37,440 nucleotides of DNA, taken from the IMG/VR virus record IMGVR_UViG_2541047705_000012, one strand, 5' to 3'. Origin of the DNA: a virus (Duplodnaviria > Heunggongvirae > Uroviricota > Caudoviricetes). The notes beneath the pieces were generated by a model. The model was not told where the DNA came from. It saw only the letters and a program-made list of their open reading frames with translations, and did no database searches. Made by a program: the position numbers and the translations under genes. Shown one piece after another: positions 27 through 36,485 of this stretch (its first letter is position 1; each line of letters begins with the position of its first letter).

Positions 27-284
27 ATGATGCCATTTGCTCGTTATTTCTGCATTTTCATAAACGTTGGTTTGGGAGAAGGGGCTGAACTACATGTTGG
101 TGTCGCTGTTAACCAGACTTCTGATACGTCGCCCTGGGCGGGTCCTGGATGCAATGGTACTTCTTTGATTCCTGAAGATGACGGGGTACTCACAAAGACG
201 GATCCTGCAAATATATGCGGTGATGTACGTATGGAGTTAATGAGTGACTATGCTTATGGCCTCAGCGTTGCTACAAGGTGTTAG
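27..284 (+). CDS. Alternative side-tail-fibre C-terminal cassette (Sv-prime-like), promoterless in the current orientation; would be fused to the constant N-terminal part of the fibre gene after inversion
   Basis: Frame is open from position 6 through crossover site A to a stop at 282-284. Shares the LGLGEG, CNG and ELMSD motifs with the C-terminus of the minus-strand fibre ORF 1739-2284, and is in the same frame relative to the crossover core. Confidence 0.5.
   Translation: MMPFARYFCIFINVGLGEGAELHVGVAVNQTSDTSPWAGPGCNGTSLIPEDDGVLTKTDPANICGDVRMELMSDYAYGLSVATRC
55..80 (+). other. Serine-invertase (Hin/Gin/Pin/Cin family) crossover site A
   Basis: 26-bp site TTTTCATAAACG-TT-GGTTTGGGAGAA; half-sites resemble the hix/gix consensus TTATCAAAAACC; 20 of 21 bp identical in inverted orientation to 1980-2000. 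Confidence 0.6.
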
Positions 285-1738
285 ATTCTCTCAACACCAG
301 AGCCATCTGTAGGTACTATTAAGGTGCTGGTAGTTATCCTTCTGGTAACATTGACAGGCTCTGGTGCTAAATTTACTGATTCTGCAGGGTCTGACGCGAC
401 CGCGATTAGTTTTTTTGTCGCCATCAGTAATGACAATTCGGTGGCGTTTAAAGTGGACAAAACCCTGGTTGATACCCGTCCTCCAGACATCGGCGTTAAA
501 TAGTTAATGATTGCAGCATAATGGTGAAATCAATATTATTTACTCCCGTAGGTGCAACAAATGATGGGCAAGTATCGTTTCAAAACTATGAGGGTGAAGC
601 TCCGCTACATGATTATGTTTTTGATATTTCCAGTGAAATTTGTGAGGATTTCCTGGGTTTTTCTTGACAAGGGAAAGAAGGTGTAGATAACGGTGGAGGA
701 CGTCCCGGTCGTTCTGTTAATTCAACCTCATGAGAAGAGGAGGCAGTGCTGCCCGGTGAAATGATCTAAATCTCTTAAGCTGGAGAAGTAAATACAATCA
801 TAAAACCGGATCAGTGGCCTGGAAATGCAACTACTAGTCGTCTGATAGCCGAATACGTTGCACAGTATGGTGAGTAGCTGGTTTACCTGAACGCGGCGCA
901 ACTGATCGATGCTGCAGGCGCGGCAGAAGTACAGCGTCCGTCGCTGACTGCAGTTCCAATGGGATCCAACGCTGCGATTCACTTGAAATTGTAGCCCGCA
1001 CCGCGTCAAAGGCATGCAGAAACACCTCGAGTCGGCGTTTTTCTGGATGACTTAGACTCGGTCACGGCAGCAAATACCAGCACATCGGAGGAATGCAAGT
1101 GGTTGGAACTGCAGTCAGCGTATGACGTTGAACTTCTGCCGCATCGAAAGCATCGCCCTGTTCCGGCTCATCATCATTATCCCACTACTAATTATCCTGC
1201 GCCAGTTCCGCCGTTAACAGACGACCAGTAGCTGTTTTGTCGGGGTAATGACGGGTTGTTGTGAAGTTTTTGGCTTCTGCAGTCTCAGTTATATATTCGA
1301 TTTCACCGGTCTAGACCTGCTCCTATTTCCAAGGGTTTAGGTAAACAAACCAACCGGGCGCTCCTCCCGTGTCAGCTATACCTTGTGTCTCCTGTCAGGA
1401 AAGTCCCAGAAATTCCACATCTGTTTCACGGTTTTTTCCTATAATATAAATATAATGCGTAGTTGCACCATCATAGTTATGAACGAAAATTTCCCCTTAC
1501 AAAGTTTCAATTCGTCGTCTAAATAATACTGAGTTCACCATTATCCTGCAATGACGAAATATTTAACGCCAATGTCGCGTGGAAGGGCTTCGTTCGGGTT
1601 AATGTCGACTTTAAACGAAACCGACTGATTATCCCTGATGGTAGCAAAAAAGTAACTCCCGGTTGAGTATAACCCTATTGTATCAGTAAATTCAGCACCT
1701 TAGGCTGTCGTTGTTACCAGGGTGATAGCGCGCTCCAC
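285..1738. repeat. Two diverged homologous arms in inverted orientation (roughly 441-730 vs 1330-1618, and 920-959 vs 1103-1142), symmetric about position ~1030; fragmented ORFs, possibly decayed tail-fibre-assembly genes
   Basis: Reverse-complement alignment by eye gives about 75 percent identity with indels. Some differences are synonymous (VQRPSL vs VQRHTL), implying former coding sequence. Neither arm has an ORF of 60 aa or more in the expected orientation. Confidence 0.45.
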
Positions 1739-2284
1739 CTAAAAAGGAACTACAAATGGCAATGTTGTTGACGGCACATAACGCTTTGTAGAAACGGCGA
1801 TCGCATCATCCTTGTCACTCATTAACTCCACCCCTAAATGGCCCATTATATTTGCAGTATAAACCTGAATGAGTACCCGGTATGCTTGAGCAGTCAAAGC
1901 CGCTCCATTGCATTCAGGCACCCCTGTGGACGACATAGCAGGGGGTTGGGGTTCCGCGTTACCAACATTCAATTTAGAGCCTTCTCCCAAACCAAGGTTT
2001 TCGAGAGCCGTTTTCACCGTGCCGTCCGATTTGATATCGCTAAACGGATTCTTGCGGCTTAACAGCAGCGCACGAAGCGCGGTAAGCAGCTGGTCGTGCC
2101 GCGCCTTCTCCAGACTGGCACCGGATGCCTCCACCACGCTGCAGAGTTCTTCCTGCAACATGTCAAAGTAGTCATCATCCAGATCGGTGGCAGGCGTGCC
2201 TGTCTGGGGGTTACCACGGGTAAAACCGTTCTTACCCGCGCCGAACTTATCCTTCTGCGCGGTTTTCGTGTCTATACGATGCAT
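1739..2284 (-). CDS. Side tail fibre protein (e14 StfP-like), currently expressed orientation; constant N-terminal part outside and variable C-terminal part inside the invertible segment
   Basis: 181-aa ORF directly downstream of the gp48/YmfQ-like gene; [11 protein letters not shown] motif typical of short side tail fibres; crossover site B lies inside the coding sequence at the LGLGEG motif. Confidence 0.65.
1982..2007 (-). other. Serine-invertase crossover site B, inverted relative to site A
   Basis: Minus-strand sequence CTCTCGAAAACC-TT-GGTTTGGGAGAA; close match to hixL core GAAAACC-NN-GGTTT. Confidence 0.6.
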
Positions 2285-2287
2285 GGA

Positions 2288-2872
2288 TTACTCCGGATAT
2301 TTAAAAATTACGTAGGTATGCGAAGGGCAGAGTTTGTTAAGCACACATTCGACGACGGTGTCGCCCCAGATACGCAGCGCGGAATCACAGGGATCGCCAC
2401 ATGTCATCCAGGTGCTGTTGGTGGCGGCTGGCATGTTGACCTGCCAGTAATACCGCCATTCCGGCGCATTCACCGCGTCAGTACAGGCCGATGAGCAGGT
2501 GAACGTGCTTTTGTCGTATCGCGTGATGGTGGCGTCTGGTCTGCCCAGGGCAGCAAGCTGTGCAAGGTAAAAATCCTCATTGATGCCGCCCGCCAGGTTA
2601 ACCTTCGCATCCAGTCGTTGCTGACGCTGGCGAAGGGTCTGTGTTCCTGCGGGAATACATTCATCCGGCAGGCCGCACAGACGCTCCCAGCGATTTATCA
2701 GTTCGGTGGTGGTGCGCGGATCCAGCTCCCGCATCAGGGCATCCGCACGCTGATGAACGCGGGTTAATGACTGTGCCGCACCGGCAATCGCCGGATCGCT
2801 GGCTGACCACGCCGGACCGGGCGGCAGCAGTGCCGACAACAGACGGATGTAATCATCGTTTGTCACGCCCAT
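2288..2872 (-). CDS. Mu gp48-like baseplate/tail protein (YmfQ, DUF2313 family)
   Basis: 194-aa ORF between the baseplate J-like gene and the tail fibre gene; sequence recalled as YmfQ-like. Confidence 0.7.
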
Positions 2873-3921
2873 GAAATCGTCCCCAGAACCGCCAGTTCAT
2901 TTTTTGCAATGGAGATATTTTCCGCCGGTGCAAGCAATTGATGGCTGTATTCCCCGTTCGCACCGGAAATCGCTTCACTGATACGCGACACCTTCAGTTC
3001 TCCCTGCGGATAACCATCACGCAGCAGGAACGAACGCAACTCCGCGGTGATGGCAGCCCGTATTTCCGGTGTATCCGGCGTCACACGGATATGAAAATCC
3101 ACCGTATGCGCCACCGGCCTGAACACATACAAATCAGAGCCTGCCACCGGGGCCAGTGGCCCGATATGTTGTCTTGCCGCCGTTTCCGTTGATTCTTCCG
3201 GAATGGGATTAATCAGGTCACTGCTGGCAATCATCACACCGACAGTCCCCGTTCCCATCCAGTGACGGTATGCCCATGCGCGGGTAATGCCGGGCAATTC
3301 TTTAGCCCAGACAACATAGTCCCCGTCAGCCCCGCCCTGAGGCGTCCAGTAATACCGCTCAATGACGCGGGCGCGCCACGTTTCCAGCTCTTCAGTATCA
3401 AATCCACCTGTCAGAGTGTCTGCCACGCCGGAAGACGGCAGACCATTAACCGGCGTGACCAGGATTAATGACGTACCGTCGTCAGCGTTACCGACCGCGC
3501 CTGCACTTGAGCAGGCGATCGGCACGCGCAGGACACCACCGGCGCTGGTTGCATCGGCAGTTGCCGTGTACTGAATCAGGTCATCGCGCTGAATAACACT
3601 CCCGGCGGTCACCTTCAGGCCATCGCTGACGCCTTCCCAGCGCATATACCCGCTGGCAGTCGTGGCCCCCTTGCGCGGACACCGTTTCATCGCAGCATGT
3701 CGCGCCAGCCAGGACTCATCGCACAGGTCAGGCAGCATGTTCATTGCCAGATAATCGATGTACCCGTAAACCGTATGCAGCGCCGCCGCATACACCTTTG
3801 CCCGCACGTCTTCATCCATGCGCCGGAGCGTGTCGCTGACGTCCAGCCTGGCGAATAAATCGTTACGGAGCATACTGATATTTTCTGCCAGCGTCGGGCG
3901 CTGAAATTCACTGTCCGCCAT
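2863..3921 (-). CDS. Baseplate J-like protein (Mu gp47 / P2 gpJ family)
   Basis: 352-aa ORF in the conserved Mu-like baseplate gene order. Confidence 0.8.
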
Positions 3922-4336
3922 GCGTTATCGCACTCCACAGATCATCTAAAGAAATCATTACCGGTCCGTCACGACGCCAGAGAGTGATACTGTTACCCAG
4001 TTCATTAATCCCGGTGCGGAGGATATCCAGATCAATACGGGACACCACGCCGTCATCAATCATCCATTGCAGGCATTCGCGGATATACCCCCTTACCGTC
4101 TGCACCAGCTGATTGGTCAGTTTGCTGCGCTGAAGCAGCCACAGTCGGGAGCCGTAACGGTCATTCTGTACCGCAGGCCAGGTATCCCCCCACCATCCCA
4201 TCGGGACGTCGGCGTTGTCATCAGGCTCCGCCCGCCGCCAGGTAAACAGGGAAATCACCACGGCGCGGGTCAGCGGATCCAGCGGTGCGCTGGCGCAGGT
4301 GCGTTTACCGTTCACCGTCAGCCACAGTTCCATCAT
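3908..4336 (-). CDS. Mu gp46-like baseplate protein (GP46 family)
   Basis: 142-aa ORF overlapping its neighbours by a few codons, in the gp45-gp47 order. Confidence 0.65.
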   Translation of the reverse strand: MMELWLTVNGKRTCASAPLDPLTRAVVISLFTWRRAEPDDNADVPMGWWGDTWPAVQNDRYGSRLWLLQRSKLTNQLVQTVRGYIRECLQWMIDDGVVSRIDLDILRTGINELGNSITLWRRDGPVMISLDDLWSAITHGGQ

Positions 4337-12167: not shown

Positions 12168-12670
12168 CTGCGTCGTCGCTCCGGCTTCAGTGATTTACGT
12201 AATTCCCGCGCCAGAAAATAGCGTGTCCAGCTGCGGTTCTTTTCAAGCGTTTCCACCATAAAGTTATTACGTGGAGCCAGTCGCCAGCCGCTGCCACCGG
12301 ATGCACCACGATGATGGCTGCGACGACGCTTTGCCCCTCGCCTCACGCCATAGAACAAAAAAGCCGGATAAAAATCACCGGTGATACGGCGGTTTCCCTC
12401 TCCATTACGCTGGTTAGGGGCTATACGTGCCATAAAACCAGGGCGATGTTTACTGGCTCTGGGTACCATGTAACCAATCGAACGAGCCAGGCGTCCGGTC
12501 TGATAACCGGGGTTTTCACCCGGTGCCGACCGCGCACGGCGCATCACCAGCCGACGGGCATCACGCATATGACGCTGACCAATCGTGACAAACGCCCGCC
12601 GGACACGGGCGCGGTTAAAGCGCATCTCCGCGGGCTGCTGAAAATCAACGTGCAAAAAGGAAGTCGTCAT
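12164..12670 (-). CDS. Neck / head-tail joining protein (HK97 gp10-like, putative)
   Basis: 168-aa Arg-rich ORF in the head-tail joining block. Confidence 0.4.
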   Translation of the reverse strand: MTTSFLHVDFQQPAEMRFNRARVRRAFVTIGQRHMRDARRLVMRRARSAPGENPGYQTGRLARSIGYMVPRASKHRPGFMARIAPNQRNGEGNRRITGDFYPAFLFYGVRRGAKRRRSHHRGASGGSGWRLAPRNNFMVETLEKNRSWTRYFLARELRKSLKPERRRR

Positions 12671-13578: not shown

Positions 13579-13627
13579 GATTCTTCACCCGTCAGAACAG
13601 GGGGCGCGGTTCCGCGCCCCTGAGTGA

Positions 13628-14833
13628 TTACGCCGCTGCAATCTTCAGCAGTTTGATGGCCTGCGAATCGACCAGCATCCCGCCGGTGCGCTTGGTGGTA
13701 TAAAAACCGACAAACGGTTTATTGGTGTACGGGTCACGCAGAATGCGGGTGCCGATACGGTCAACGATGGTGTAACCCCGTTTGAAGTTACCAAATGCAA
13801 TGGCTTTCGCATCAGCGGCGATATCCGGCATCTGTTCGTTTTCAGCGATACCGTAACCCGCCAGAGAGGACGGCTGCCCCAGTTCCAGCCCCGGACGCCA
13901 CAGATAGTTACCCTCGCTGTCTTTAAGCAGACGGATGGCAAACAGGCTGTTGTTGTTCATCATGAACTTCGCGCCAGTGCGGTGTGCCTTACGCAGCGTG
14001 TAAATCAGTTTGATAATGGCGTCTGCGGTCACCGCCGTCGCTTCGCCGGATACAATATGCTGAAGTTTGCCGAACGCCCGGACCTTATCGGTTTCATCAG
14101 TGGATTCATACGCCAGGAACCCTTTCGGCTTCTTGGTACCATCGCCGGTGGTAAAGGCAATTTCTTCCTGTTCGGCAAATTCGGTTGCCAGCTCGCTGTT
14201 GATCCATGCTTCCACGTTGAAAAAGGCATCATCCAGCATTTTCTGGGTGGCCTGCGGGTTACCGTAGATTTCCCCCATGAAAGGTTCAATCAGGCCCAGT
14301 TTTGAGGTGGCAGTCTGGGAGCGCGCGTCAGTCTCGCCAACCCATCCGGAAGCCGTGCCGCCCAGATTCACCAGTTTTTTGTAGTCGGAACCACCAACGG
14401 TGATCACCGTGGCTTCCTGGCGCATCACCACTTCATCTTTCAGCAGGGTGAGAATGTTGCGATCCAGTGCTTCCGGCACGGCATAGCCGCCGTCTTCATC
14501 GGTGCCTACCTGCAATGCCTTGCGCTCCAGATCGCGCAGACCATCTTCACGGCCTTTACGCAGGAAGCCCACAAACGCTTCTTTATGCTCGGTGGCCAGT
14601 TTATTTTGCGCACCACCTGCCGGACGTTTCAGCTCAAGCAGCTCTTTTTCAAGATCGCTTTTGAGGTTTTCCAGCTCGCTGAGTTTCCCGTTCAGGGTTT
14701 CCACCTGCCCGGCAAGTTTGCCTTTTTCCTGCTCAATCGCATCCACGCGCTTGTCGTTCTTTGCTTTGAAGTCGTCAAACTTCTGCTGCAGCTCCTGCGC
14801 GACCTGTTCGACATCTTTAATATCAACCGCCAT
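13628..14833 (-). CDS. Major capsid protein (HK97 fold) with N-terminal coiled-coil delta domain
   Basis: 401-aa ORF; N-terminal heptad-rich region, then a capsid-like body; follows the prohead protease. Confidence 0.9.
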   Translation of the reverse strand: MAVDIKDVEQVAQELQQKFDDFKAKNDKRVDAIEQEKGKLAGQVETLNGKLSELENLKSDLEKELLELKRPAGGAQNKLATEHKEAFVGFLRKGREDGLRDLERKALQVGTDEDGGYAVPEALDRNILTLLKDEVVMRQEATVITVGGSDYKKLVNLGGTASGWVGETDARSQTATSKLGLIEPFMGEIYGNPQATQKMLDDAFFNVEAWINSELATEFAEQEEIAFTTGDGTKKPKGFLAYESTDETDKVRAFGKLQHIVSGEATAVTADAIIKLIYTLRKAHRTGAKFMMNNNSLFAIRLLKDSEGNYLWRPGLELGQPSSLAGYGIAENEQMPDIAADAKAIAFGNFKRGYTIVDRIGTRILRDPYTNKPFVGFYTTKRTGGMLVDSQAIKLLKIAAA

Positions 14834-31348: not shown

Positions 31349-32173
31349 ATGTCTCAGAACTTAGACGCAACCGCAATTAATCAAATCCATGCCCTTATTT
31401 CTGCTCAGGGTGTTAATGAAATTATCAGTAAGATTGGTGCCGATGCTGTGGCATTGCCTGAGAATTTCCGCATTCATGATCTGGAAAAATTTAATTTAAA
31501 TCGCTTCCGTTTCCGTGGTGCGCTTTCCACTGCCAGCATCGATGACTTTACCCGTTATTCTAAAGATCTTGCGGATGAAGGCACCCGCTGCTTTATCGAT
31601 GCCGATAATATGCGTGCCGTCAGTGTGCTTAACCTGGGTACTATTGATGAGCCTGGTCACGCAGATAACACCGCCACTCTCAAACTGAAAAAGACAGCAC
31701 CGTTCTCTGCTCTGTTGTCTGTTAACGGCGAGCGTAACTCCCAGAAGTCACTGGCAGAATGGATTGAAGACTGGGCCGACTACCTTGTGGGCTTTGATGC
31801 TAATGGTGATGCCATTCAGGCAACAAAAGCGGCTGCGGCAGTCCGTAAAATCACGATTGAAGCAAACCAGACCGCTGATTTTGAAGACAATGACTTCAGC
31901 GGCAAACGCTCCCTGATGGAGTCTGTCGAAGCGAAGACCAAAGATATTATGCCAGTGGCATTTGAATTTAAATGCGTTCCGTTTGAAGGCCTGAAAGAAC
32001 GTCCGTTTAAATTACGCCTCAGCATTATCACTGGCGATCGTCCTGTACTGGTTCTGCGCATTATTCAGCTGGAAGCAGTGCAGGAAGAAATGGCTAACGA
32101 ATTTCGTGATCTGCTTGTTGAGAAATTCAAGGACAGCAAAGTAGAAACCTTTATTGGTACTTTTACCGCCTGA
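31349..32173 (+). CDS. DUF2303-family protein (recalled as YfdQ-like)
   Basis: 274-aa ORF with a ribosome-binding site; family assignment from memory. Confidence 0.5.
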
Positions 32174-34048: not shown

Positions 34049-34209
34049 CAATCAGGAAACACCACCAGGGAGAAACGATCAATATAACTTTCACCTACAA
34101 AGGAGTTAGATGTCGTGAGCCGCTTTCCAATCTGGAAGTAACACCAAAGAACATTAAATACGCCGAGTGAACCGCCCCGGGTTTCCTGGAGAGTGTTTTA
34201 TCTGTGAAC

Positions 34210-35100
34210 TCAGGCTGCCAGATCATCGTTTCCGATGGAAGCATAATAAGCTTTTTCTGCTTCTGCCGGAGGAGTATGGCCCAGCCTTTCCAGCAATCGT
34301 CGATTGTTATACCAGTCCACCCACGTGAGTGTGGCCAGTTCCACTTCTGCACGGTTTTTCCAGCTCTTACGGTGTATTACCTCCGCTTTGTAAAGACCAT
34401 TGATGCTCTCCGCCATCGCGTTGTCATACGAGTCGCCTGTACTTCCTGTTGATGCCAGTAATCCGGCTTCCTTAAGCCGCTGTGTGTAGGCCAGCGATAC
34501 ATACTGAGAACCTTTATCACTGTGATGGACCGTGCCGGACGGTCGACGGGCCCATAACGCCTGCTCCAGTGCATCCAGCACGAATGTCGTTTCCATGGAC
34601 GATGAGACCCGCCACCCCACGATGTATCCGGCAAACACATCAATGATGAACGCCACATAGACGAAGCCCCGCCATGTGCTGACGTAAGTAAAATCAGCCA
34701 CCCACAGCTGGTCAGGTCGTTCTGCCACGAACTGACGGTTTACGCGGTCGCCTGCGGCAACGGCTTTCCGGCTGATGGTCGTACGGACCTTTTTACCCCG
34801 GAGAACACCGGCAAGTCCCATAACCGCCATGAGACGTGCCACAGTGCATCTGGCCACTCTGATACCTTCCCGTAACAACTGACGCCAGACTTTACGCACA
34901 CCGTATACCTTGTGATTTTCATCGTATACGCGCTGTATCTCTTTCTTCAGCCAGTCATCGCGCTGCGCACGGGCACTGCGTTTATCCGGATGATGTCGCT
35001 GTTGCTGACAGTGGTAATACGTTGACGGGGCAATATGCAGTTCGCTGCATAGCGGTCCGACCCCGTACTGCTCACGCAGCTTATCCAGCAGTGGCATCAT
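34210..35100 (-). CDS. IS3-family transposase OrfB (DDE integrase domain)
   Basis: 296-aa ORF in the -1 frame relative to orfA, starting within the A-run at the orfA 3-prime end. Confidence 0.85.
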
Positions 35101-35423
35101 TTTTTCCAGAGGCGGTCGAACTCCGCCTTCGCAAAATAAGCGGAAGCCTGGCGAAGGATATCGTTACTGCGGCGCAGTTCACGATTTTCACGTTCCAGCT
35201 CTTTCAGACGCTGACGTTCAGCGGTGGTGAGCCCTCCATCACCGCCCCCGGTATCCCGCTCATGCTGGCGAACCCAGACACGCAGAGTCTCCGGCGTACA
35301 GCCAATCTTTGGAGCAATGGAACAAATTGTCGCCCATTGTGAGTCATATTCGCTCTGACTTTCCAGAACCATACGGACTGCCCGTTGACGGACTTCGGGG
35401 GAAAAACGAGTATTTTTAGTCAT
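35097..35423 (-). CDS. IS3-family transposase OrfA (HTH and leucine zipper)
   Basis: 108-aa ORF ending in WKK at an AAAAAA run, typical of the OrfA/OrfB frameshift window. Confidence 0.85.
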
Positions 35424-36485
35424 CCTGTTTACCTCTTTCTCAGGAAGTTTAGTCTCCAGGATTCCCGGGGCGGTTCAGAGCGTACACTCGGCGAAATCCA
35501 TAATAAGATCGAAAGGGGAACATTCATTTATGCAGAATATTTTCCCCGTTCTGCTCGTTTGAAAATTTTTGGTAATGCTGCTGCAAGCAAAACGGTAAAG
35601 ATGTACCTGGACGAATATCTTGAAATCTGCGAAACAAGAAAACTTTCACCCTCTACGATTGGTGGCTATAAAAAATGCCGTAGTGCGTTAGCCTCACTTC
35701 ACATTTGCCCTGCAAGTGAATTAACACCAGCAACCCTGAAAGCGTGGATTCAAAGCCAGAAAACAACCTTAAAAACCATTCGCAACCAGTTATCTTTCCT
35801 ACGGTCAGCACTTGATGAAGCCGTGACCGATGGGGTACTTCAAATTAACCCCGTATCGTTAGTAACAGCTTCGCGCTACCAAAGTGATAAGTCAGAAGCA
35901 GAAAGCAGCTATGTGGTTGATCCGCTATCACCAGCAGAAGTTGATGCATTACTAGCAGCAGCCGGAAACAAACAATGGGAAAATCTGTTCCGGTTCGCCA
36001 TACATACAGGCCTGCGTAGTTCTGAATTATGTGCCCTACGATGGCATGATATCGACTTTGTTGGAAAAACAGCCCATGTTCAGAGCGCAAGTGTTGTCGG
36101 AGTTATCAAAGGAACAAAGACAAAAGCCGGTACCCGTAAAGTTGAACTGACTGAAGAAGCAATGTTGGCGTTGATAAACCAGAAGCCATTTACATTCATG
36201 AAGGATGCTACTGTCTTTGAAGATCCAAAGACCAATAAACCCTGGGCAAGTGCTGATGCAATTAGGAAAAAAGCATGGGTGCCAACATTGCGAAAAGCAG
36301 GTATTCGTTACAGAAACCCATATCAAACCAGGCATACATTCGCCACCAGCCATATCAGCCGGGGAGCAAACCTGTTTTGGCTTGCGGCTCAAATGGGCCA
36401 TAAAGGGCCTGAAATGTTATTCAGGCACTATGGACAATACTTGAAAGAGTATGATGGGAGGGCAAGTATCAAGGATAAAAAGGCT

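Follow-up and report, generated by a model that had tools for sequence, protein, structure and literature searches.

Switching of host range is the classical role of invertible segments that carry phage tail-fibre genes. The closest described relative of the locus treated here is the P segment of the e14 element of Escherichia coli K-12 with its invertase PinE (Plasterk & van de Putte 1985; Mehta et al. 2004; PMC12529663; PMC4272514). PinE, PinQ and PinR are each able to invert this segment, the latter two being encoded by other cryptic prophages (PMC12529663), and both e14 orientations were found by whole-genome sequencing to coexist in clonal cultures (PMC4272514). The anti-phage protein StfE2 arises from trans-inverted e14, and the role of this fibre fragment in defence was demonstrated in K-12 (PMC12529663). 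A comparable case in Salmonella, as relayed by PMC12529663 and PMC4272514 from Kutsukake et al. (2006), is the Fels-2 invertase Fin, which flips the H segment in trans. Invertases of this family (the Din family) need a Fis-bound enhancer in cis, located within the invertase gene about 100 bp from one of the sites, with a native spacing of 99 bp in the case of Hin (PMC3798978). Here we describe a locus of this kind at the left end of a 37,440-nt stretch of viral DNA, IMG/VR record IMGVR_UViG_2541047705_000012 (hereafter the window, numbered from its first letter). With high confidence we interpret it as an invertible P segment of the Pin/e14 type, carried by an SfV-like prophage of E. coli; its interior was recorded as a mosaic in the draft genome of E. 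coli HVH 32, and its inversion probably takes place in trans. Previous publications already cover the Pin/e14 switch, its sites and its activation in trans by paralogous invertases, and nothing reported here is new in kind; what is gained is that a first reading made from the letters alone (the sequence-only reading) is corrected and that a database record is recognised as mis-assembled.

Two pix sites around a mosaic interior

The boundaries of the segment and the recorded sequence between them are as follows.

55-80, plus strand: left (pin-proximal) 26-bp crossover site of the 12-2-12 type, TTTTCATAAACG TT GGTTTGGGAGAA, with the core TT at 67-68.
1982-2007, plus strand: right 26-bp crossover site of the 12-2-12 type, TTCTCCCAAACC AA GGTTTTCGAGAG, with the core AA at 1994-1995, within the tail-fibre gene.
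82-1980, inside the segment 68-1994: per-base mosaic of both orientations, which is not a real molecule.

Base for base, the left site is the pinE-proximal pix site of e14 of K-12 MG1655 (positions 13606-13631 of the e14 locus, L003), and the right site is the pix site within ycfK/stfP of the same element (positions 11779-11804 of L003). The distance from the site centre to the pin ATG is 67.5 bp both in K-12 e14 and here. The sites were searched for with a 12-2-12 consensus of invertase crossover sites; it was validated on the Mu G segment, whose annotated boundaries sit exactly in the middle of the two matches to it. A scan of all 37,440 bases on both strands with up to three mismatches allowed returned exactly two matches, 55-80 and 1982-2007, each with one mismatch (the annotated Mu gix sites have two each), while shuffled sequences give an expectation of 0.02 chance matches and none of 100 shuffles reaches two. 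The pair of inverted 26-bp sites noticed in the sequence-only reading is real and the sole such pair in the window, and its proposed likeness to known crossover sites is borne out by the fit to the consensus and by the identity with the e14 pix sites. The arrangement is that of the Din family, with 12-bp half-sites and a matching 2-bp core (TT/AA). The two sites are identical at 21 of 26 positions; the core of 20 matches in 21 bp that had been claimed holds for positions 62-82 against 1980-2000, and the true perfect inverted repeat between the sites is only about 15-16 nt long. The right site does lie inside the fibre gene, as had been proposed, at codons 93-101 (ALENLGLGE).

The sequence between the sites is of a different nature. 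The megablast comparison of the window with 5426 complete E. coli genomes yielded no full-length match, and a 40-mer from the interior had no match in an exact search of genome, viral and metagenome contigs. When the window was compared without gaps to E. coli ATCC 11775, identity was 100% outside 55-2007; inside, it ranged from 48 to 78% per 50 nt, with about 65% overall and zero indels. Each base of positions 1-2600 is either the ATCC 11775 base or the base that results when the segment is reverse-complemented about its centre. The second state exists in nature: the constructed inversion of ATCC 11775 is matched by strain APEC O1 with 0 mismatches over 2600 nt, the two strains being exact reverse complements of each other across 68-1994. 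We refer to the orientation of ATCC 11775 (NZ_CP033092.2, 1252141-1254540) as F and to that of APEC O1, its exact inversion, as I. Among the 1359 informative positions at which F and I differ, 679 follow F and 680 follow I, with none following neither. The choice between the F and the I base behaves as a series of independent coin flips: it forms 671 runs along the sequence against 684.5 expected, its correlations at lags 1-50 never reach an absolute value of 0.04, mirror positions are uncorrelated and no base is favoured. Two candidate sources of the mosaic were rejected. A base-dependent or alphabetical tie-break is out, all six base pairs splitting about evenly, and so is a mixture on the scale of read length, as no autocorrelation was seen at lags 1-50.

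Several features of the window follow from this composition. A repeat search finds arms of 481 nt that are 70% complementary, and the open reading frames that lie between the sites are short and interrupted. When a sequence is mixed base by base with its own reverse complement, self-complementarity of about 65% should result; since the interior is such a mosaic, the 481-nt degenerate inverted repeat is a by-product of the scramble. The scrambled fibre reading frame of 181 aa, which ends at 1739, has no match to any Pfam family. The alternative cassette that the sequence-only reading placed at the far end does exist in the window as a reading frame at 27-284, but it is a product of the scrambled sequence.

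A comparison over 12,284 nt showed no difference between the window and scaffold KE699135.1 of the E. coli HVH 32 draft (GCA_000456505.1), and the scramble was thus already in the public record and not introduced later. The scrambled 181-aa fibre has itself been deposited, as EQO21709.1, 'phage tail protein [Escherichia coli HVH 32 (4-3773988)]', and forms a singleton cluster among about 15 billion proteins. The assembly GCA_000456505.1 therefore holds about 1.9 kb of per-base mixed sequence together with annotated proteins derived from the mixture; in KE699135.1 these roughly 1.9 kb never existed as DNA, and EQO21709.1 is a chimera. As to how this came about, we conjecture that the assembler met two paths of equal length with shared flanks, one holding the segment and the other its reverse complement, and that it may have flattened them site by site with an arbitrary pick at each difference. 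A collapse of two paths needs reads across both kinds of junction, which implies both orientations in the sequenced DNA; we infer that both were present in the HVH 32 culture. The 50:50 split of bases in the mosaic is uninformative about the ratio of the two forms in that culture. Invertible segments can thus enter databases as per-base mosaics that resemble degenerate long inverted repeats with decayed genes, and they leave a signature that can be screened for: between two short inverted repeats, each base equals either that of a sequence X or that of the reverse complement of X.

Anatomy of the switch in intact genomes

The true layout was taken from ATCC 11775, APEC O1 and strain C1 and is given below in window coordinates of the true F sequence.

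68-1994: invertible segment of about 1.93 kb, with exchange at the central dinucleotides 67-68 and 1994-1995.
2284, minus strand: start of the tail-fibre gene, which reads downwards.
1995-2284, minus strand: constant N-terminal part of the fibre, outside the segment, 100% identical to ATCC 11775.
1541-1994, minus strand: variable C-terminal cassette F, fibre residues 102-247, of the tail-collar type (PF07484 Collar, E=1.2e-15).
939-1541, minus strand: tfaE-type assembly chaperone paired with cassette F (annotated tfaE in ATCC 11775; PF02413 Caudo_TAP, E=4e-30).
524-967, plus strand: second assembly chaperone, paired with the alternative cassette (annotated tail fibre assembly protein; PF02413, E=6e-28).
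81-521, plus strand: alternative C-terminal cassette with 146 aa beyond the site, silent in F (seen on translating the inverted form, both as constructed and as found naturally in APEC O1).
1-54: spacer between the left site and a minus-strand pin stump, the start codon of which adjoins position 1 on its left.

In all three genomes the gene order is ymfQ, fibre, tfaE, second tfa, alternative cassette and pin stump. The constant part of the fibre is annotated 'phage tail protein' and stands downstream of ymfQ and the baseplate J gene. The translations of both orientations have fibre residues 1-101 in common; the F fibre is 247 aa long, its gene ending at 1541, and the inverted form encodes a different fibre that is also 247 aa long. 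The reading frame of the alternative cassette in the real sequence spans 30-521 and encodes 163 aa, of which 146 lie past the site. It matches PF21882 (Gp53-like_C) only weakly, at E=1.3e-4 and with 22.9 bits, which is below the cut-off of 24.9. As judged from these domain assignments, the two C-termini fall into different families, which is consistent with different receptors. The real sequences therefore have the S/S'-U/U' layout of phage Mu, namely a constant N-terminal part outside and two opposed in-frame pairs of cassette plus chaperone inside; the scrambled text of the window itself fails to display it. Because the interior is a mosaic of both orientations, the boundaries and sizes of the cassettes in the sequence-only reading were wrong: it had the last 65-80 or so residues exchanged, and the real swap involves 146 of the 247 residues along with the cognate chaperone. 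The kind of element was recognised correctly, i.e., a Hin/Gin/Pin-type inversion that swaps the C-terminus of a fibre, for the sites are those of e14 and both orientations are found in nature.

By analogy with its relatives, the switch would operate as follows. A serine invertase of the Din family (Pin, Gin, Cin, Hin) would pair the two 26-bp pix sites, cut at the central AA/TT dinucleotide and rotate the segment of about 1.93 kb. The late operon would read the first 101 fibre codons from outside the segment, and the orientation would decide which of two unrelated 146-residue, presumably receptor-binding C-termini is fused to them, each with its own chaperone.

A truncated pin gene and probable inversion in trans

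The DNA to the left of the window accounts for the missing invertase.

12285-12413 of the source record (L088) and 3878-4000 of the ATCC 11775 region (L001), minus strand, left of the window: pin stump, an open reading frame of 42 codons with a PF00239 hit.
12509-17797 of L088 and 62-3776 of L001: island replacing the 3' part of pin, with GmrSD (PF03235/PF07510, annotated DUF262), a LEM-3-like GIY-YIG protein and a DpnII/MboI-like protein.

In ATCC 11775 the first 41 residues of the stump are those of PinE 1-41, followed by unrelated DNA and a stop. The source record has this stump, as does every close relative examined (ATCC 11775, APEC O1, C1), and the left flanks of the source and ATCC 11775 differ at 1 of 4000 positions. 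The expectation of an invertase just left of position 1 was correct insofar as the gene starts there, but what remains of it is a stump of 41 codons, after which comes the GmrSD island. Of the usual features of the family, an adjacent serine invertase gene of about 180-190 codons is thus missing, and since that gene is reduced to a stump, the locus is an orphan segment of the family and not a complete system. GmrSD/DUF262 is a type IV restriction gene and is followed by further defence-like genes; the corresponding place behind pinE in K-12 e14 is taken by mcrA, another type IV restriction enzyme. Restriction genes seem to have a hotspot at this prophage end.

The junction of truncated pin and DUF262 also occurs in more divergent E. 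coli (isolates from pig, pigeon, goose and frog), where it is joined to related but different cassettes (86% coverage, 94-97% identity). Such combinations imply that the truncation is old and that the cassettes have since been diversified or exchanged.

The pin DNA that is retained amounts to 123 bp and reaches 190 bp from the site centre. Within it, at pin nt 22-36 and 71-85, lie two Fis-like cores of the form G-N13-C, 95.5 and 144.5 bp from the site centre, and between them is a TAATG tract like the one described for the Hin enhancer. By comparison with the related systems, these 123 bp probably still supply a cis-acting Fis-dependent enhancer. The strong conservation of 5' DNA among gin, pin and a Salmonella homologue is explained equally well by a conserved catalytic motif, and the Salmonella member of that alignment (L071, S. 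diarizonae) is not an identifiable hin locus.

The orientation of the segment was surveyed in the 5426 complete genomes with F and I junction queries. The right junction, between the constant fibre part and the cassette, is in the F state in 512 genomes and in the I state in 39. The left junction with its flank of truncated pin and DUF262 is F in 79 genomes and I-like in 68 (at least 80% coverage), 23 of the latter being full-length at 99.9-100% identity. UTI89, S88, NU14 and ATCC 11775 are F, and IHE3034, APEC O1 and PMV-1 are I, the junction queries matching all of them at 100%. As expected of a Din-family element, both orientations occur and the exchange falls exactly at the sites. APEC O1 (I) and ATCC 11775 (F) carry the same stump. 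Since the stump is common to F and I genomes, inversion probably occurs in trans and, by analogy with PinQ and PinR, would be catalysed by a Pin-family invertase encoded elsewhere, on another prophage or on a plasmid. The genome survey and the assembly bubble in HVH 32 together point to flips after the loss of the invertase; switching within one culture we infer from the mosaic alone.

Possible sources of such an invertase were looked for by differential blastn, in which the hits of DUF262 plus full-length pin are compared with those of DUF262 alone; this approach is blind to diverged or plasmid-borne invertases. Further pin-like chromosomal loci were found in UTI89 (one), IHE3034 (one), FDAARGOS_1303 (two) and GN04979 (four), and none at this sensitivity in ATCC 11775 and S88. 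An extra locus is present in 7 of the 10 I genomes listed and in about one third of the F genomes, by a hand tally of genomes that are not independent, so that a greater richness of I genomes in extra pin-like loci is suggestive only. At least 80 loci related to PinE occur in GTDB representatives of other strains and genera; ATCC 11775 is not among the matches listed, an absence that is uninformative in a pattern-based scan.

Several observations weigh against a segment that is still inverted in trans and was caught in both states in HVH 32. The step from the scramble to a mixed culture is an argument about the behaviour of an assembler, and a literature search on the flattening of alternative paths by assemblers (ALLPATHS-type) returned nothing usable. 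A tblastn search with PinE detected no serine recombinase other than the stump in the window or in the 47-kb ATCC 11775 prophage region, which reaches about 7.5 kb past the stump; the absence of an invertase nearby is one of the findings that the sequence-only reading had named as telling against its own proposal. The placement of the enhancer is borrowed from the homologues hin and gin and from the spacing of 99 bp reported for Hin (PMC3798978). Finally, PMV-1, GN06489 and GN06758 are in the I orientation and have no second pin-like chromosomal locus at blastn sensitivity, and their orientation may be inherited and not recently switched.

An alternative is that the switch is a locked fossil, in which the invertase has been lost, the orientations either pre-date the truncation or were spread by recombination, and the mosaic came from mixed or contaminated DNA or from a quirk of the assembler. 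The 42-codon stump in every relative examined, the several I genomes that lack another pin-like chromosomal locus and the age of the truncation, as told by the stump junction with other cassettes in more divergent strains, all agree with it. We nevertheless regard it as unlikely. Close relatives that share the same stump are found in both the F state (UTI89, S88, NU14) and the I state (IHE3034, APEC O1, PMV-1) with junctions that match the queries at 99.9-100% identity, a pattern that fits repeated recent flips better than old inheritance; the collapse of two assembly paths needs reads over both kinds of junction; and inversion of the e14 segment in trans by paralogous invertases is documented experimentally (PMC12529663). 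A process unrelated to the Din family, either rare RecA-dependent recombination at the short inverted repeats or the action of an unrelated recombinase, would explain why no intact invertase was found nearby and why some I chromosomes show none at the sensitivity of blastn. Homologous recombination, however, would not be efficient on a perfect repeat as short as about 15-16 nt, exchange within the 26-bp sites, which are canonical pix sites, would yield exactly the inverted form seen in nature, and blastn misses diverged or plasmid-borne invertases, so that such a route appears very improbable. Hardly any credence can be given to a genuinely decayed locus, that is, a 481-nt degenerate inverted repeat around pseudogenised fibre and chaperone genes with a short cassette ending at 284. 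This is how the window looks at face value, with its 70% complementary arms and its short, broken reading frames between 284 and 1739. Yet unrelated or diverged sequence would miss the F or I base at about half of the 1359 informative positions, every one of which carries one or the other. The lack of indels over 1.9 kb between flanks that are 100% identical to ATCC 11775 speaks against decay as well, as do the coin-flip statistics and the singleton product without a Pfam match.

We retain the interpretation of the locus as a P segment that is probably inverted in trans. A stronger proposal, which we put forward tentatively and consider doubtful, is that the orphan P segment, having kept its sites and an enhancer-bearing stump, still flips appreciably in E. 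coli of the extraintestinal pathogenic type through the invertases of co-resident or incoming prophages. In its extreme version, flipping would go on in genomes that have no Din invertase at all; PMV-1-like chromosomes show none. If this proposal were true, the state of the switch would reflect other mobile elements or react to them, and the host might benefit from it, for instance through the blocking of phages at the surface as with StfE2 in K-12; the published work (PMC12529663) would thereby be modestly extended. With its cis invertase lost and both states found, this widespread group of clinical and avian E. coli is a natural case for the control in trans of phage-derived switches.

The host prophage and the known systems

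The whole window is a near-complete SfV-like myovirus prophage of E. coli. Its structural half, from terminase to baseplate, is 97-98% identical to Shigella phages SfII, SfI, SfIV and SfV over the covered part of 2008-25000, and its left end contains, on the minus strand, the tail end of the late operon (the gene for the DNA circularisation protein and baseplate genes). The remaining features are listed here.

2863-3921, minus strand: baseplate J/gp47, late operon.
2288-2872, minus strand: YmfQ/gp48, late operon, just upstream of the fibre gene.
34168-35477: IS3-family insertion sequence (IS) of 1310 bp with a 3-bp target duplication, orfA at 35097-35423 and orfB at 34210-35100 on the minus strand.

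The IS3-family element splits the gene of the prophage tyrosine integrase, which is intact in ATCC 11775, and for this reason the prophage in HVH 32 is probably unable to excise. Outside the segment and before the IS, the window differs from ATCC 11775 at nine positions in all. Four of them (31444, 31447, 31456, 31462) are clustered within 19 nt, at 31444-31462, which may be a small recombination patch or another local ambiguity of the assembly; the others (14507, 16908, 21299, 27531 and 28988) are isolated. In strain APEC E19019 (NZ_CP126937.1, 1315372-1322765; L086) most of the same prophage is gone between two IS3-family copies and the integrase end alone is left beside ssrA, which suggests a deletion mediated by the IS. 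This strain gave the best match to the distal end of the window, but with so much of the prophage lost it was rejected as the source.

Compared with the e14 P segment, the present locus has identical crossover sites, the same 67.5-bp spacing from site to pin ATG, the same gene order (ymfQ-stfP-tfaP-tfaE-stfE-pinE in K-12) and the reported inverted repeat TTGGTTTGGGAGAAGG. The weak, below-cut-off Gp53-like match of the alternative cassette is to the type of domain reported for StfE2 (PMC12529663). The differences concern the state of preservation and the surroundings: a near-complete SfV-like prophage is found here and a 15-kb remnant in K-12, the segment measures about 1.93 kb against 1797 bp, both fibres have their full 247 aa here but stfE of K-12 is a pseudogene, and pin is cut after codon 41 and followed by the GmrSD island in place of an intact pinE followed by mcrA.

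The G segment of Mu with Gin and the C segment of P1 with Cin share the general plan, with a constant part (Sc) outside, opposed Sv-U and Sv'-U' cassettes inside, 26-bp sites of the 12-2-12 type and an invertase gene beside one site. The gix sites of Mu fit the same consensus, and gin is 77% identical to pin over the first 135 nt. In Mu, however, the gix core is GA/TC and not AA/TT, the cassettes are other ones, the segment is 3 kb long and Gin is intact and acts in cis. The H segment of Salmonella with Hin is alike in recombinase family, in the type of site and in a Fis enhancer about 100 bp from a site (PMC3798978), and the action of Fin on it is a precedent for a second, prophage-borne invertase. 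Hin differs in that it flips a flagellin promoter and not the C-terminus of a fibre, and in that hin lies inside the segment. The closest parallel to inversion in trans is the action of PinQ and PinR on the e14 P segment (PMC12529663), where the same sites are flipped by invertases encoded elsewhere; it differs from the situation described here in that PinE, the cis invertase, is also intact in K-12.

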